Sequence record: NC_054902.1
DNA: 64,000 nt
Direction: 5' to 3' (one strand)
DNA from: Enterobacteria phage Aplg8
Numbering within the stretch: position 1 is the stretch's first letter; each line of letters opens with the position of its first letter. A model generated the notes under the pieces. The model made no database searches and was not told the origin of the DNA. It saw only the letters and a list, made by a program, of their open reading frames with translations. The translations under genes and the position numbers were made by a program. Shown piece by piece: positions 785 to 62,030 of the stretch.

Positions 785-815
785 GGGGACCTTTCGGTCC
801 CCCATATTTTTATTT
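785..815 (+). terminator. Rho-independent terminator after gene 54
   Basis: GGGGACC-tttc-GGTCCCC hairpin followed by a T-rich run (catatttttattt). Confidence 0.6.
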
Positions 816-1100
816 ACGGAATGAAATAAAAGCAGCAACTGAAGCAACAGAGGTTTCTTCAATATAAACCTCAATTTTTACCGGAGCTTCTGACTCAAAT
901 TTACCTGTTACTACACCCTGGAAAATGCTTTCAGTCTGTTCTGGCTTTGAAAAATTTTCAGAAGGAAAAATTCCAAACTTTTTATCGGTTCCGAAAATTT
1001 TAATAAATTCATCGTAAACTGCTTCATTAAAAGCATTATCAGCGGGAATAACGCCTTCAACGACGAGTTCTTGACCTAAAAAGCGCAAAGAAGATTTCAT
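810..1100 (-). CDS. Hypothetical protein, 96 aa
   Basis: ORF with GAGG Shine-Dalgarno about 8 nt before the ATG; directly downstream of the copy-A early promoter cassette. Confidence 0.45.
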   Translation of the reverse strand: MKSSLRFLGQELVVEGVIPADNAFNEAVYDEFIKIFGTDKKFGIFPSENFSKPEQTESIFQGVVTGKFESEAPVKIEVYIEETSVASVAAFISFRK

Positions 1101-1108
1101 TTTGTGTT

Positions 1109-1161
1109 CCTCATGTTATGTCAGTAAGACTACTATAACACAACACGAGGGACTTGTAAAC
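1109..1161 (-). promoter_or_regulatory. Early sigma70-type promoter plus leader, copy A of a 53-bp repeat
   Basis: Minus strand reads GTTTAC-N18-TATAGT, then a leader ending in CATGAGG immediately before the ATG at 1100; 52/53 identical to 16389-16441. Confidence 0.5.
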
Positions 1162-3218
1162 TACATTTTGAACTTTTTAGACATTCCGTTGATGTTAACC
1201 AAAGAAGCTAAGATTTGAGAAACTTCGTTTTCCTCTTCTTTTGATTCTTCTACAAGGAATTGATTAAATCCAGCCATTAGACGAACTTCACCAGTTTCCA
1301 TTAGATGGTCGCCATCATATACTGATTCCTCTAATTGTTCAGAAGGAGGAACGATTGTACCTTCGATTAGATACTTGTTATAAGCAGTTTCTTTCATAAA
1401 GTAAGTACTTACTTTATTAATCTTCAGTAAAATTCCACGTGGTAGAATAACTTCAGCTTCTGATGGAAATCCTGATAAATGACCCGGAACGATAACTTTG
1501 ATTCGCTCAGCTCCTTTAATTACCATACCCACGCTAGTTTCAGCATCTTCATTAGCATATGTAGAATGACTACCCATATGCATCAAATCTTCTGCATCAA
1601 CGGAACCTTCTCCTTCACCAGAAAATACTGCTCCGGAATCATCTAAGGCCATATAATTTTTACCATACTCACCAAAGATATTTGGTTTAAGTGATGTCGA
1701 TACGAAGTTCTTGAAATAGAACATTTTATTTTCAATGTTATGACGCAAAGTTTTAAAAGTAACTTCTTGTCCACGGTAAAGTGTAGTTCCTGGAGGAAGA
1801 ACTGAACCTTTAGCGAATGCAGAATCAAGCGTCTCAATATGTTTAATAGCTCGTTCCATATATTCTTCACGGGTAGAATCTGGTTTACCCAAAAGGAACG
1901 AGTTCATTTCAACATATGAATCTGCGCAATAATCTTCAATTACGTCAGATTCAGCCTGAGTTAATCCTTTTGGAGTTACTTCGGTGCTTGCATATTCATA
2001 CGCCTGAGCAGCGGATTCATCAATTAATTTATAAATGCCATTCATGACAAATTGAATAATAGCTGTCTTTTCATCTGGCGTAGCTTTAGAACCTTTAACT
2101 AAATCATTGACAATTTTCTTAATAACATCAAAGCTATTAGAAATATTAATGTCAGCAAGATCGCTTAAAATTTTATCAGTTTTATAATCAAAAAATTCTT
2201 TATTCTTTAAATATTCTTGAGAACTTTGATATGTTATATCGCTCTGCAACTTGATAGATGGATCACGTAAACGTGCATGGGCTAATGCAATATGATTTCG
2301 GAAGCTTTCTAGTTCATAATCGTTAGATTTAAAACGAGAAGCACTTCTCATACCACCGATAGCTCCTTTGCTGAAGTTTGAACCAATCTGAATAACGCCA
2401 GAGTTCATTGGTCCTTCTGCTTTATATACCGGAACTTTAGATTCAAACTCTTGATATTTCTTAGCAGCGAAGCTATCACCCTGAAGTGAAGCATCAACAG
2501 TAGAATATTGAGCTTGTGCTGCTAATCGACGACTAATTTTAGTTTTCTGAATAACAGCTTGATCCGTACGCTTATCATTTTCTAAAGCAATAGAAGCAGC
2601 AACTGCGACAGCTTTAGGAACAGCATTACCTGTTTTAACGTCTACATAAACATCACCAACCTTTGATTCAACTTTTGTGAATAACTCAGTTGAAATAGGA
2701 GGTACACCTGGAATGTCTTCTAAATTGGCATTTTTACGGTAAACCATAATATATGCATATTTCTTATCATAGTCCCAGATTTCCTTTAAAAGAACATATC
2801 GACCTGCTCCTTTAGTACGTACTAAACGGTCAGCAATAACTTGCATTTGACGAGCTGCGCCATTTGTTTTACTCTTTAGTACGCGGAATAAGCATGCATC
2901 AATTTTATACTGTTTCATTGTTTGAAGAGCAGTATCAAAAACAGCATTAATGACGCCAATTGGATTTCCACCTAAGTTTTTAAGTTTAACTAATGATAAT
3001 TTCTCGTTGACACCTATCATTACGATATGCATCATTTTGTCGCCTGGCTTAACGTTTTTATTCGTATCACCGCCAGAGGTGTATGTACAAAATCTAAATC
3101 CAGGAAGCACGCTTTCTTCACCGGCTTGAATAGCAAAAATTTGAGGTATTTTATGCTTAGGATTTAAGTTAACAACCGGCGCCGAAGCGCCGTCAAATAA
3201 TTCTGTAATAAGTTCCAT
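1161..3218 (-). CDS. Alt-family ADP-ribosyltransferase paralog, 685 aa
   Basis: N-terminal ~240 aa (MELITELFD...KISRR) about 65% identical to the adjacent alt product; C-terminal region retains R-S-E type motifs (YRGQEVTF, FVSTSL, EAEVILPRG); central region diverged. Confidence 0.8.
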   Translation of the reverse strand: MELITELFDGASAPVVNLNPKHKIPQIFAIQAGEESVLPGFRFCTYTSGGDTNKNVKPGDKMMHIVMIGVNEKLSLVKLKNLGGNPIGVINAVFDTALQTMKQYKIDACLFRVLKSKTNGAARQMQVIADRLVRTKGAGRYVLLKEIWDYDKKYAYIMVYRKNANLEDIPGVPPISTELFTKVESKVGDVYVDVKTGNAVPKAVAVAASIALENDKRTDQAVIQKTKISRRLAAQAQYSTVDASLQGDSFAAKKYQEFESKVPVYKAEGPMNSGVIQIGSNFSKGAIGGMRSASRFKSNDYELESFRNHIALAHARLRDPSIKLQSDITYQSSQEYLKNKEFFDYKTDKILSDLADINISNSFDVIKKIVNDLVKGSKATPDEKTAIIQFVMNGIYKLIDESAAQAYEYASTEVTPKGLTQAESDVIEDYCADSYVEMNSFLLGKPDSTREEYMERAIKHIETLDSAFAKGSVLPPGTTLYRGQEVTFKTLRHNIENKMFYFKNFVSTSLKPNIFGEYGKNYMALDDSGAVFSGEGEGSVDAEDLMHMGSHSTYANEDAETSVGMVIKGAERIKVIVPGHLSGFPSEAEVILPRGILLKINKVSTYFMKETAYNKYLIEGTIVPPSEQLEESVYDGDHLMETGEVRLMAGFNQFLVEESKEEENEVSQILASLVNINGMSKKFKM

Positions 3219-3221
3219 GAT

Positions 3222-5318
3222 TTATCCTTGAACGAACTTGTAAGGCATGTTTGTAATATCTATGCAAGACGCAATAATTCCAAGAGATGATTCTACTTTC
3301 TGTTTAACATTTGATGAAACAAATGATGCAAAGTCAACTCTGTCTTCTATTTCAATATCACCTGTCATTGCAACTACTTCGCCAGTTTCCATTAAACGGT
3401 CACCGTCATAAATTACCGATTCGGTGAGTTCTTCGGTGGTCATAACTTCAGCTTGAATGAGTTTTGTATTATTAGACGTGGTTCCGTCATTATTAGAAGC
3501 ATCAGTTATTTTATTAACTTTGACCATCAATCCGCGCGGTAGAATAACTTCGGCTTCTGTTGCTATTCCGAGACTTCCTGGATATACAACATTAACTTTA
3601 TGAGCTCCATCAATTGCCCATCCTATTTGAACTTTAACGTATTCAGGATTTTCTTTATACGCTCTTATTTCGTTTGGATTAATAGTTATTCCTTCTTCAT
3701 TTTTATCAACTGTCAATTCATTACGAGCTTCTGGTTCTAAAAGACCAATACCAGCATGTGTAATTCCAAAACGTCCAAAAATGATAGGAGTTAAAGAAGT
3801 AGATACAAAATTTCTGAAATAGAACACTTTATTTTTAACTAGTGCTTCGTATATAGGAGCAGTCATACTTTGAGCACGATAAACTGTGATGCCTTCCGGT
3901 ATGCGGTCACCATTTTCAAAAGCTGAATCTAAGTTATTTATAGCAGATTCAATTTCTTTTTCACTCATTACATCATATCGTTCTGGATTGTAACGACCTA
4001 AAAGAAGATTATTGATGTCAGTATATCCTGAACCGCAATATTCTCTAATGCCACGCTTTTGTGATGGAGTATATTTAGAACCATCGCGGGCAATAGTAAT
4101 ATCAATCATTGGACCAGCACCAATTCCAGAAAAACTGTAAATCATTCGTTTGAGGAATTTAGTTTTTGCTGCGTTCCAGGAATTTTTAGTTATTTCTTCC
4201 CAGACTTCATCTGGTTGTCCTTTACGATTTTTATTATGATTAGCAAGCCATTTATCTTTATAATCTTCAAAGAATTGATTTACAGCTGCTGCGTATTTCT
4301 CTAAACATTTTATTGAAGTAGTTGGTTCATTTTTAATTGCATTAAAAATTACTTCTTTAATTTTTTCTGAAACTTCACCGACTTGACTCATTGGAAAGAA
4401 TTTATAATCATAGTGAAGTTCATCTGCCGTTCCTTTAGCAATAATTTTTGCTGCCTTTGTTTTAGAAGCTAATGAATTAATTCCAATTTTCATTTCTTCT
4501 GCTTCGGGAATTAAAGGTGCAGTAGCTGGTTTATTAAAATTAGCTGCTGTAGATTCATACTTCTGGAATAATTCACTTTCAAATCTAGAAGATTCCAATG
4601 ACTGACTTTGTGCAATTGCTCTACGGGAAATTTTAACTTTAACGATTACGGCTTGGTCAGAACGTTTATCATTTTCTTGTGCAATAGATGCAGCAATTGC
4701 CTCATTTTTGGTTACTTGAGCTCCAGTATCTTTATTGATATAAACATCACCGACTTTCGATTCAACTTTAGTAAAGAGCTCGGTACTAATTTCCGGAACT
4801 CCTGGAATGTCTTCTAGTGATACATTTTTACGATGTATAAGAATATATGCATACTTTTTATCGTAATCCCAGAGTTCCTTAAGAAGGACGTATCTGCCAC
4901 CTGAACGACTGCGGATGAGTCTATCAGCAATAAGTTGAATTTGTCGAGCTTGACCGGCGGTTTTAGACTTAAGAATACGGAGCATACAGGCATCAATTTT
5001 ATACTGACGCATCGTTTGCATCGCAACAGTAAAAACTGAATTGATGTAATTAATTGGGCTTGGACCGAGACCTTTTAATTTAGCAATTGAACCTTTAGCA
5101 GTTAATGTAAAAGGAACAATATGCATCATTTTATCGCCCATCTTTAAATCGCGATTAGTATCACCTCCAGATGTATAGGTACACAAACGAAAGCCTGGTT
5201 GTTCAATTGCGTCATCAACATGAACTGAAAAAATTTGCGGTATTTTCTTCTTTGGATTTAAGTTTGTAATCGGAAGAGTAGTATCTTCGTCAAATAATTC
5301 TGTAATGAGTTCCATCAT
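3222..5318 (-). CDS. alt: Alt ADP-ribosyltransferase, head-packaged; probable start at the second Met
   Basis: 698-aa ORF starting MMELITELFDEDTTLPI; motifs YRAQSMTA, FVSTSL, EAEVILPRG; T4 Alt is 682 aa (recalled); located next to gene 30 as in T4. Confidence 0.85.
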   Translation of the reverse strand: MMELITELFDEDTTLPITNLNPKKKIPQIFSVHVDDAIEQPGFRLCTYTSGGDTNRDLKMGDKMMHIVPFTLTAKGSIAKLKGLGPSPINYINSVFTVAMQTMRQYKIDACMLRILKSKTAGQARQIQLIADRLIRSRSGGRYVLLKELWDYDKKYAYILIHRKNVSLEDIPGVPEISTELFTKVESKVGDVYINKDTGAQVTKNEAIAASIAQENDKRSDQAVIVKVKISRRAIAQSQSLESSRFESELFQKYESTAANFNKPATAPLIPEAEEMKIGINSLASKTKAAKIIAKGTADELHYDYKFFPMSQVGEVSEKIKEVIFNAIKNEPTTSIKCLEKYAAAVNQFFEDYKDKWLANHNKNRKGQPDEVWEEITKNSWNAAKTKFLKRMIYSFSGIGAGPMIDITIARDGSKYTPSQKRGIREYCGSGYTDINNLLLGRYNPERYDVMSEKEIESAINNLDSAFENGDRIPEGITVYRAQSMTAPIYEALVKNKVFYFRNFVSTSLTPIIFGRFGITHAGIGLLEPEARNELTVDKNEEGITINPNEIRAYKENPEYVKVQIGWAIDGAHKVNVVYPGSLGIATEAEVILPRGLMVKVNKITDASNNDGTTSNNTKLIQAEVMTTEELTESVIYDGDRLMETGEVVAMTGDIEIEDRVDFASFVSSNVKQKVESSLGIIASCIDITNMPYKFVQG

Positions 5319-10088: not shown

Positions 10089-10118
10089 ATACTATCACAA
10101 AGGAACCATACTGTAAAC
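10089..10118 (-). promoter_or_regulatory. Early promoter (GTTTAC-N18-TAGTAT)
   Basis: Consensus -35 GTTTAC and TGn-extended -10 on the minus strand. Confidence 0.5.
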
Positions 10119-15536: not shown

Positions 15537-15886
15537 TTAGAAAGGTCCTGGATGTCTTCTGCGAACTTGTTGAAGGAGTTGTTGATTTGTTTTTCAACCA
15601 ATCCTGGCTTATGAGCCACCACATCCGCCTTCTTTGCGTCTTTGCGCAGTTTTTCATTTTCACGCTCAATAGCAGCAATTGCCTCACGATTTTTATTATT
15701 CATCGCATCAATATAATTATACTGAATTCGCAAATTATTTAATGCTAAGGCGTTTTCATTGGCCGTTTTTGTAATTTCTACAACAGACGTTTCTAATCTT
15801 TCAATTTTATTTTTTAAAATTAAAGAAGTTCCGCCTAATGCAATTACAATTAATAGCAAACCTGCTGTCGTATTACTTAATTGCAT
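15533..15886 (-). CDS. Inner-membrane spanin (Rz-like), 117 aa
   Basis: N-terminal transmembrane segment TAGLLLIVIALGGTSLIL followed by a coiled-coil-like charged region. Confidence 0.6.
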   Translation of the reverse strand: MQLSNTTAGLLLIVIALGGTSLILKNKIERLETSVVEITKTANENALALNNLRIQYNYIDAMNNKNREAIAAIERENEKLRKDAKKADVVAHKPGLVEKQINNSFNKFAEDIQDLSK

Positions 15887-16383
15887 AAAGTTTTAATAAC
15901 CTCTATAATATCGTCTTGAGAAAGACCGTTAATTAAAATATGATGTTCAGCTGGAGATTTAGAAATTTTAAAGCATGCCTCAACATCTTCTGCCATATCC
16001 GATGCACTACGATTTGGATTACTAATACCAAGGCGGTGTTTTCCCGTCAAAGGATTAACGATGATATAGCATTTGCAGCTATTGATATGAACATTGGGTT
16101 GAGTCTGATTAATGAACACTTCACAATCATACTTAGCGAGTTGATTTTCTAAAAAGACTTTCATCTCTTCAACCGCATCAGGAAGCATATCACGGGCTTG
16201 CTCAAGACGACGATTTCGATATTCTTTAATGGTCGTTTTCCGCTTGACTTGCTTAGCTAAATCTTTCTTAAGATCGGTGATATATCCAACTCGACGATTT
16301 CCTTTGAATACAGAAATCCCATCTGTAGTATCACCGTATGCTTCAACGACCATTTCAGTAGTAATAAGTTGTAAATCCATCAT
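15877..16383 (-). CDS. alc: Alc-like host transcription termination protein
   Basis: 167/168 aa as T4 Alc; position between the pseT cluster and rnlA. Confidence 0.6.
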   Translation of the reverse strand: MMDLQLITTEMVVEAYGDTTDGISVFKGNRRVGYITDLKKDLAKQVKRKTTIKEYRNRRLEQARDMLPDAVEEMKVFLENQLAKYDCEVFINQTQPNVHINSCKCYIIVNPLTGKHRLGISNPNRSASDMAEDVEACFKISKSPAEHHILINGLSQDDIIEVIKTLCN

Positions 16384-16388
16384 AAAGT

Positions 16389-16441
16389 CCTCATGTTATG
16401 TCAGTAAGACTACTGTAACACAACACGAGGGACTTGTAAAC
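16389..16441 (-). promoter_or_regulatory. Early promoter plus leader, copy B of the 53-bp repeat
   Basis: GTTTAC-N18-TACAGT then leader ending CATGAGG before the alc ATG; 52/53 identical to 1109-1161. Confidence 0.5.
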
Positions 16442-16444
16442 AGC

Positions 16445-18056
<1,612 letters not shown>

Positions 18057-46222: not shown

Positions 46223-46252
46223 ATAGTACCACGGAAGAACAGTCTTGTAAAC
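46223..46252 (-). promoter_or_regulatory. Early promoter (GTTTAC-N18-TACTAT)
   Basis: Consensus elements; leader TACCCTATCAACTACGGAGG. Confidence 0.5.
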
Positions 46253-51012: not shown

Positions 51013-51042
51013 ATTATACCACATCCTTGTGGTAAAGTAAAC
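51013..51042 (-). promoter_or_regulatory. Early promoter for the rIIA operon (GTTTAC-N18-TATAAT)
   Basis: Consensus elements; the -35 overlaps the gene 39 stop codon. Confidence 0.5.
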
Positions 51043-56803: not shown

Positions 56804-56821
56804 CTAACCGAGGAAGTAAAC
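56792..56821 (-). promoter_or_regulatory. Early promoter (GTTTAC-N18-TATTAT)
   Basis: Consensus elements on the minus strand. Confidence 0.5.
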
Positions 56822-62000: not shown

Positions 62001-62030
62001 ATCATATCATTGTTAGGAAGGAAAGTAAAC
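62001..62030 (-). promoter_or_regulatory. Early promoter for the modB-modA operon (GTTTAC-N18-TATGAT)
   Basis: Consensus elements on the minus strand. Confidence 0.5.

Follow-up and report, generated by a model that had tools for sequence, protein, structure and literature searches.

The 64,000-nucleotide stretch analyzed here (the window; Enterobacteria phage Aplg8, NC_054902.1) comes from a Tequatrovirus (T4-like) genome and, near the cassette considered below, is 97-99.5% identical to Tequatrovirus genomes (JLBYU22, RB18, RB14, T4 derivatives). Gene identities were taken from PHROG matches together with synteny with the annotated T4 record. On the minus strand, which carries the genes near both copies of the cassette, the space between rnlA and alc holds a 54-bp element (copy B) that recurs about 15 kb away in front of a homolog of alt.-3 (copy A; Table 1). 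Copy B spans the space from 3 nt past the rnlA stop to 7 nt short of the alc ATG annotated in T4, so that its placement between these two genes in the original prediction was correct. There are two adjacent ATGs at alc (window 16378-16383), the first of which, at 16383, reads ATA in REP2, UFV05 and FL08 (~17078-17083 of the fetched regions), and we therefore take the second, at 16380, as the conserved start. Copy A overlaps the stop codon of the second alt paralog, the final G of that TAG serving as its first base, and its last base lies 7 nt before the alt.-3 ATG. alt.-3 is dispensable and of unknown function, and its C-terminal extension mutants escape the CmdTAC defence system (PMC11618068).

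Several features of the surroundings may be recorded beside this. The Alt-like ADP-ribosyltransferase upstream of copy A is one of two tandem full-length paralogs on the minus strand (1161-3218 and 3222-5318; nucleotide identity 70-76%); the second paralog survives only as fragments (alt.-1, alt.-2) in T4, and both are intact in T2, REP2, UFV05 and FL08. Between the convergent gp54-like gene and alt.-3, at 785-802, lies a perfect hairpin, GGGGACC-TTTC-GGTCCCC, with a terminator-like score on either strand, probably a bidirectional terminator. The ORF at 17622-18056 (minus strand), between nrdB and rnlA, is denA (endonuclease II) according to the annotation of close relatives, and nrdB is here a single 392-aa ORF and thus, unlike T4, has neither the nrdB intron nor I-TevIII.

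Table 1. Positions in the window of the two cassette copies, their predicted elements, neighboring genes and other early promoters, with the paired arms found upstream of alc in other genera
Feature	Position	Strand	Description
Copy B, 54-bp cassette (GTTTAC...GAGGA)	16388..16441	-	rnlA-alc intergenic space
Copy B -35 hexamer TTTACA	16435..16440	-	T4 early motif GTTTAC at 16436-16441
Copy B extended -10	16412..16420	-	TG 16420-16419, n, TACAGT 16417-16412
alc Shine-Dalgarno GAGGA	16388..16392	-	copy B leader
Copy B hairpin (predicted, read-through RNA only)	16385..16435	-	5' arm 16435-16411, loop 16410-16407, 3' arm 16406-16385
rnlA (RNA ligase 1)	16445..17569	-	gene upstream of copy B; stop TAA 16447-16445
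alc (inhibitor of host transcription)	15877..16380	-	start ATG 16380 per T4 annotation, other ATG 16383
Copy A, 54-bp cassette	1108..1161	-	between second Alt paralog stop and alt.-3
Copy A promoter	1132..1160	-	TTTACA 1160-1155, 17 nt, TG + TATAGT 1137-1132
Copy A Shine-Dalgarno GAGGA	1112-1108	-	before alt.-3
Copy A hairpin (predicted)	1106..1153	-	20 pairs, -23.0 kcal/mol, z -4.4
Second full-length Alt-like ADP-ribosyltransferase paralog	1161..3218	-	gene upstream of copy A; TAG stop shares G at 1161
alt.-3 homolog	810..1100	-	gene downstream of copy A; 96 aa, function unknown
Early promoter, -35 at 62030	61974-61351 (gene)	-	ModB-like ADP-ribosylase
Early promoter, -35 at 56821	56764-56261 (gene)	-	phrog_1106 protein
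Early promoter, -35 at 10118	10061-9729 (gene)	-	30.8-like gene
Early promoter, -35 at 46252	from ~46194 (small ORF)	-	37-aa membrane ORF
Gelderlandvirus alc arms			5' ATCTCCGTTT / 3' AAACGGAGAT
Jiaodavirus alc arms			5' ATCCTCATCAG / 3' CTGATGAGGAT
Karamvirus alc arms			5' TCTCCATTTGGTT / 3' AACCAAATGGAGA
Bragavirus alc arms			5' AACCTCTCATTTTT / 3' AAAATGAGAGGTT
Winklervirus alc arms			5' TCCTCATTTCGTT / 3' AACGAAATGAGGA

The repeat itself is not in doubt. The 53-mer first proposed occurs twice on the plus strand, at 16389-16441 with no mismatch and at 1109-1161 with one, and two such matches appeared in none of 100 dinucleotide shuffles of the sequence. A repeat search lengthened the unit by one base, giving direct repeats of 54 nt at 1108-1161 and 16388-16441 (98% identity, 15,280 bp apart), so the claim of identical 53-bp copies holds as near-identity (53/54) and fails as strict identity; the coding-strand sequence of the unit is GTTTACAAGTCCCTCGTGTTGTGTTA(C/T)AGTAGTCTTACTGACATAACATGAGGA, and the sole difference falls in the -10 hexamer, TACAGT in copy B and TATAGT in copy A. 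The window holds 18 promoter cassettes of the GTTTAC type; over their 153 pairings the number of matching positions averages 24.3 +/- 5.5 out of 54, and after copies A and B, with 53, the closest pair reaches 40. Together with the shuffles, this rules out both chance and a shared promoter consensus as explanations of the repeat, and the similarity of A and B reflects a true duplication. Searching IMG/VR with Alc and Alt.-3 yielded no more than 5-6 close relatives apiece, and the phage GenBank collection was used for comparison instead. A 91-nt query around copy B matched there at 995 places in 498 phage records, approximately two per record, T4, T2 and T6 included, and both copies were read directly in the T4 reference record. 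The cassette sequence is thus not new; both copies have stood in the T4 genome record for decades.

Both copies fit a T4-type early sigma-70 promoter (GTTTACA, at 16441-16435 in B and 1161-1155 in A, a 17-nt spacer and TGnTAYAGT) followed by a leader of ~25 nt with the Shine-Dalgarno (SD) sequence GAGGA 7 nt before the start codon, and the notion of a promoter-leader unit is borne out by these elements. In a consensus scan of the two regions, they were the only matches with a TG extension. Early promoters have reportedly been listed near both positions in T4. The T4 early consensus places GTTTAC at -36 to -31 (PMC1524935). From this arrangement we infer that transcription would start at the A seven nt after the -10 hexamer, predicted at 16405 in copy B and 1125 in copy A. 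Since the cassette precedes both genes, similar transcriptional timing of two unrelated genes, as had been suggested, is plausible; the gene driven by the second cassette is, however, alt.-3 and not alt. No middle promoter turned up immediately upstream of alc when the sequence was scanned with a strict MotA box, and we therefore consider more distant upstream promoters as the likely source of RNA reading through into alc. Our literature search returned no mapped promoter or transcription start at alc or alt.-3, and no described alc hairpin or structure-probing, 5'-end or translation data for the locus; older descriptions may exist.

The most informative feature of the cassette, absent from the original prediction, is an inverted repeat within it. 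The element is also a long imperfect palindrome in which the promoter spacer is complementary to the SD, the anti-SD stretch CCCUCGUGUU... of the spacer pairing with AACAUGAGG(ACUU) of the leader. In copy B the 5' arm starts at the last base of the -35 hexamer, includes the anti-SD CCCUC, and runs through the spacer and the -10 hexamer, which sits near the apex, to one base beyond; the 3' arm is the leader with its SD, and the predicted +1 falls at the base of this arm. The predicted fold has 22 pairs (-25.7 kcal/mol, z -5.3). Copy A is predicted to form a shorter hairpin without the outer AAGUCC/GGACUU pairs that copy B makes with the alc-side flank. With 150 nt of upstream context, the alc SD is predicted to be unpaired with probability 0.003 in RNA that reads through and 0.75 in promoter-initiated RNA, and the SD of copy A with 0.195 and 0.155, a weak predicted discrimination; these are thermodynamic predictions from a model that leaves out co-transcriptional folding, ribosomes and helicases. 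In Tequatrovirus the sense strand is more stable than the antisense strand by 6-10 kcal/mol through G.U pairs, which favors a structure in RNA over one in DNA, while the stems of most other genera are purely Watson-Crick and there pairing in RNA and in DNA look alike. Variants within Tequatrovirus keep or improve the pairing: in one metagenomic alc copy a G-to-A change turns a G.U pair into A-U, and the copy A of T2 and of one metagenomic genome has GTTCCTTATGTT, which pairs uninterrupted with the alt.-3-specific flank AACATGAGGAAC.

We propose that the cassette is an early promoter and leader acting as a translational insulator, and that copy A is a copy of the alc cassette; judging from sequence and folding predictions, we consider this rather probable. 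RNA reading through from rnlA and beyond would carry both arms and fold into a hairpin of 20-22 bp burying the ribosome-binding site of alc. RNA initiated at the cassette promoter, on the other hand, would begin ~7 nt after TAYAGT, at the base of the 3' arm, and, lacking the 5' arm, would leave the site free. Synthesis of Alc would then be confined essentially to RNA from its own early promoter, and so to an immediate-early burst, while read-through RNA of the delayed-early or middle period would not yield the protein. Such a scenario, if true, would give a reason why alc, whose product shuts off host transcription, is expressed only in a short immediate-early pulse.

A stem-loop at this position might instead act on the polymerase. 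In RB49 and phi1, intergenic cassettes termed PeSL (promoter-early stem-loop) have been proposed to stop RNA polymerase arriving from the upstream gene, and by analogy the stem-loop here would terminate or attenuate transcription from rnlA, leaving alc to be transcribed mainly from its own promoter. A PeSL consists of an early promoter with a stem-loop between -35 and -10 or overlapping the -10, then SD and ATG (PMC2839356), a layout into which the present cassette fits; one PeSL stem-loop cut lacZ expression as much as a strong terminator (PMC2839356), and PeSLs have been reported in PST, a phage close to T4, where they are described as lying upstream of the promoter (PMC4122927). We nevertheless regard attenuation as unlikely here. 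Our terminator scan of 15800-17700 found no terminator-like site, none between rnlA and the cassette, and on this ground an intrinsic terminator with a G+C-rich stem and a U-run was rejected; the tail after the stem reads CUUUAUGAUG in copy B and ACACAAAAUG in copy A, and in most genera no U-tract follows the stem (...GGAGAUUAACAAUG, ...GAGGAUAUUGAAAUG). PeSL stems are G/C tracts, compared to mixed or AU-rich stems here, and every 3' arm carries the SD and every 5' arm an anti-SD, neither of which a pure terminator needs. Membership in a curated RNA family was also considered and rejected, since Rfam 15 gave a single match, to Histone3 (E 0.74), which falls within alc coding sequence and is due to chance.

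Comparative evidence for the insulator comes from the alc upstream regions fetched for other genera. Some 498 Tequatrovirus records preserve the rnlA-alc junction, and of 14 further phages sampled, 11 show the same gene order there, the exceptions being VR25, Acj9 and avDM1, which have an extra or unannotated ORF at the junction. The comparison of this region in relatives, which had been suggested as a check on the repeat, thus turned out positive, with the element itself in ~498 Tequatrovirus records and an analogous element in most other genera. In nine genera (Tequatro-, Gelderland-, Jiaoda-, Karam-, Roskilde-, Braga-, Dhaka-, Winkler- and Kanagawavirus) a 5' arm begins 0-3 nt past GTTTAC and pairs with an SD-bearing 3' arm, and in Biquartavirus the SD is masked by a 5' arm shifted onto the -10 region; taken together, 9 to 10 of 12 genera have the same architecture in front of alc, with arms that differ in sequence but co-vary (Table 1). 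Fold z-scores across genera range from -3.5 to -7.1, and the distance from -35 to ATG is 58-61 nt in all 12. Alignment of the 12 alc cassettes by MAFFT is nearly ungapped, yet leaves the 3' arms 1-4 columns out of register between genera; because re-registering them by hand would bias the result toward structure, we used a register-independent permutation test instead, in which the 20 nt after GTTTAC of each genus were paired with the 28 nt before ATG of each genus in all combinations. Cognate duplexes averaged -17.8 kcal/mol versus -11.0 for non-cognate ones, the cognate partner ranked first in 8 of 12 rows, and the observed sum was reached by none of 100,000 permutations. A hairpin that would restrict Alc synthesis is, we believe, well supported by this comparison. 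Masking at alc was absent from two of the 12 genera, Mosigvirus and the Providencia phage PSTCR6, and Acinetobacter phage Acj9, outside the 12-genus test, has no such hairpin at alc, from which we conclude that the device is dispensable. As a separate observation, the extra ORF of Gaprivervirus VR25 between rnlA and alc (77 aa; 1186-1490 of the fetched region) resembles the Alc N-terminus, as in a partial duplication; ahead of it, a GGGG...CCCC stem-loop encloses GTGTACA, a -35-like sequence.

The tight spacing of the upstream stop codon and the cassette raises the question of translational coupling, in which a ribosome terminating at the upstream stop would melt the base of the hairpin, so that alc or alt.-3 would be translated in proportion to the upstream gene. 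In most genera only 0-4 nt separate the stop from GTTTAC, and in copy A and in Braga-, Dhaka-, Winkler- and Kanagawavirus the two overlap through the TAG; a ribosome terminating there, with a footprint extending ~10 nt beyond the stop codon, would sit over the initial 4-5 bp of a helix of 9-14 bp. In copy B, however, the helix starts 10 nt and the partner of the SD 13-17 nt past the rnlA stop, probably out of reach of the ribosome for a helix of that length and predicted stability, in Roskildevirus the stop lies 13 nt before GTTTAC, and tight spacing of stop and promoter may simply reflect genome compaction. Coupling therefore seems to us improbable. The presence of a stable stem-loop right after the stop codon in both copies could also be read as protection of the 3' end of the rnlA (or alt) mRNA or as a signal directing an RNase, the overlap with the SD being incidental in a space of 60 nt. 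This we consider very improbable, as it leaves unexplained why across nine genera the 3' arm coincides with the SD and the 5' arm lies right after the -35, and why the same masking is seen at other promoter-proximal genes in the window.

Those other genes deserve attention in their own right. Among the 75 gene starts in the window with a recognizable SD, evaluated in read-through context, the SD of alc is the second most sequestered, and four of the top five have an early promoter no more than 75 nt upstream, namely the ModB-like ADP-ribosylase gene (61974), alc, the phrog_1106 gene (56764) and the 30.8-like gene (10061). Promoter-proximal genes as a group are more sequestered than the rest (median 0.165 versus 0.41; Mann-Whitney p = 0.0076). 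We note that the spacer or -10 region pairs with the downstream SD also at the other minus-strand early promoters listed in Table 1. A small hairpin of another kind, CCACAAGGA(T/C)GTGG, recurs in the spacers of early promoters in the window (minus strand, -35 at 51042 and 46765), in the alt.-3 promoters of Gapriver-, Mosig- and Marfavirus and in the Mosigvirus alc promoter (~445-475 and ~1442-1470 of the fetched regions of other genera), and looks like a second type of promoter. Perhaps, then, an anti-SD arm inside the promoter, with the spacer doubling as 5' arm, is a general design rule of T-even early promoter cassettes; we put this forward tentatively, as a possibility that falls short of being probable. 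If it were so, a cassette and its gene would form an autonomous, portable expression unit that is silenced on all other transcripts, the toxic host-takeover proteins (Alc, the ModB-like ADP-ribosylase and others) would be limited to the immediate-early pulse, the arrival of the alc cassette at alt.-3 in Tequatrovirus would be one visible example of this portability, and some PeSL "terminators" would be translational insulators.

How copy A came to its place can be considered from the alt.-3 side. In Gapriver-, Mosig-, Marfa- and Kanagawavirus, the ortholog of alt.-3 is likewise preceded by an early promoter that follows the alt stop directly and has no anti-SD arm, and the spacers of these non-Tequatrovirus promoters hold a small local hairpin of the CACAAGGAnGTG type. 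The AAGU that in copy B pairs with the alc-specific flank is unpaired in copy A. Because the anti-SD design is common at alc, whereas outside Tequatrovirus it is missing from alt.-3, and because the helix of copy B reaches into the alc flank, we infer that the sequence was copied from B to A. Thus, an alc cassette probably replaced the alt.-3 promoter in a Tequatrovirus ancestor, and copy A would be a transplant placed there by ectopic recombination or gene conversion, with both copies perhaps still exchanging sequence occasionally. Copying in the reverse direction in Mosigvirus, from an alt.-3-type cassette to alc, was considered but found no support, since the 46 of 61 positions shared by the alc and alt.-3 cassettes of Mosigvirus, while the top of its row, lie within the background of 36-46.

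The original prediction had seen the significance of the pair elsewhere, in a substrate for homologous recombination that could delete or invert the intervening 15 kb, along with co-regulation of the two genes. Near-identity over 54 bp in a highly recombinogenic phage does in principle offer a substrate for deletion or duplication, and pairs of PeSLs are reported to recombine into deletions and mini-circles (PMC2839356). Inversion is not possible, however, since the repeats are direct. Nor does the interval run from alt through rnlA: rnlA lies outside, upstream of copy B, and the 15.3 kb contain alc, pseT, cd, 31, rIII, 30, alt and the second alt paralog. T4 numbered genes were defined by conditional-lethal mutations, and genes 30 and 31 are essential, so that deletion of the interval should be lethal; a 15-kb duplication would exceed the terminal redundancy of T4. 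The interval is intact in each of the six genomes fetched, and the count of about two matches per record points the same way. Neither the deletion nor the inversion that had been envisaged is realistic. A more subtle trace of exchange may be found in a two-SNP haplotype, TATAATAATC (versus TATAGTAGTC), which combines a consensus -10 hexamer with a linked G-to-A change and segregates at both loci, at alc in REP2, UFV05 and FL08 and at alt.-3 in T2, UFV05 and one metagenomic genome; locus-specific 114-nt queries carrying it found matches of at least 99% in at least 11 records for alc and at least 32 for alt.-3. The sharing of this minority haplotype hints at ectopic, non-reciprocal gene conversion, but parallel selection for the consensus -10 (TATAAT) could also have produced it. 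Taken together, we find it quite unlikely that recombination across the interval and co-regulation are what the pair signifies.

Lastly, the translational insulator that we propose needs to be placed among systems already described. The closest in principle are the T4 genes whose SD and/or AUG is hidden in RNA initiated upstream and whose internal promoter yields a translatable RNA without the 5' arm; the post-transcriptional review lists as masked start sites only e, soc, 49, I-TevI and homing-endonuclease genes, alc not among them (PMC3014915). Unlike the alc cassette, e, soc, 49 and I-TevI use late (gp55) promoters, which postpone translation, whereas an early sigma-70 promoter would confine it to early times, and in the alc cassette the 5' arm is the promoter spacer itself. 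If our reading is correct, the cassette would be an early-promoter counterpart to this classic T4 temporal control by masking of the ribosome-binding site. In layout, with an intergenic early promoter, stem-loop, SD and ATG repeated in the genome, it resembles the PeSLs (Arbiol et al. 2010; Comeau et al. 2014), which have been proposed to mediate recombination and cassette shuffling (PMC2839356, PMC4122927). PeSL stem-loops have, however, been read as terminators or attenuators, with translation never mentioned (PMC2839356, PMC4122927), whereas the stem of the alc cassette pairs the spacer with the SD, and its copies lie 15 kb apart in the conserved core and do not flank an ORFan. PeSLs are found in hyperplastic regions with variable ORFans and indels, a setting that the rnlA-alc junction does not share and that copy A, bordering the variable alt-paralog region, fits in part. 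Were the insulator confirmed, the stem-loops of T4-type promoter cassettes would need to be re-read as translational insulators and not as terminators. A promoter-borne anti-SD that lowers read-through expression has a bacterial parallel in sigma-54 promoters with CT-rich anti-SD motifs (bioRxiv 10.1101/086108); the motifs there are short and were found in a synthetic library, in contrast to the long, co-varying hairpin within a phage sigma-70 promoter considered here.
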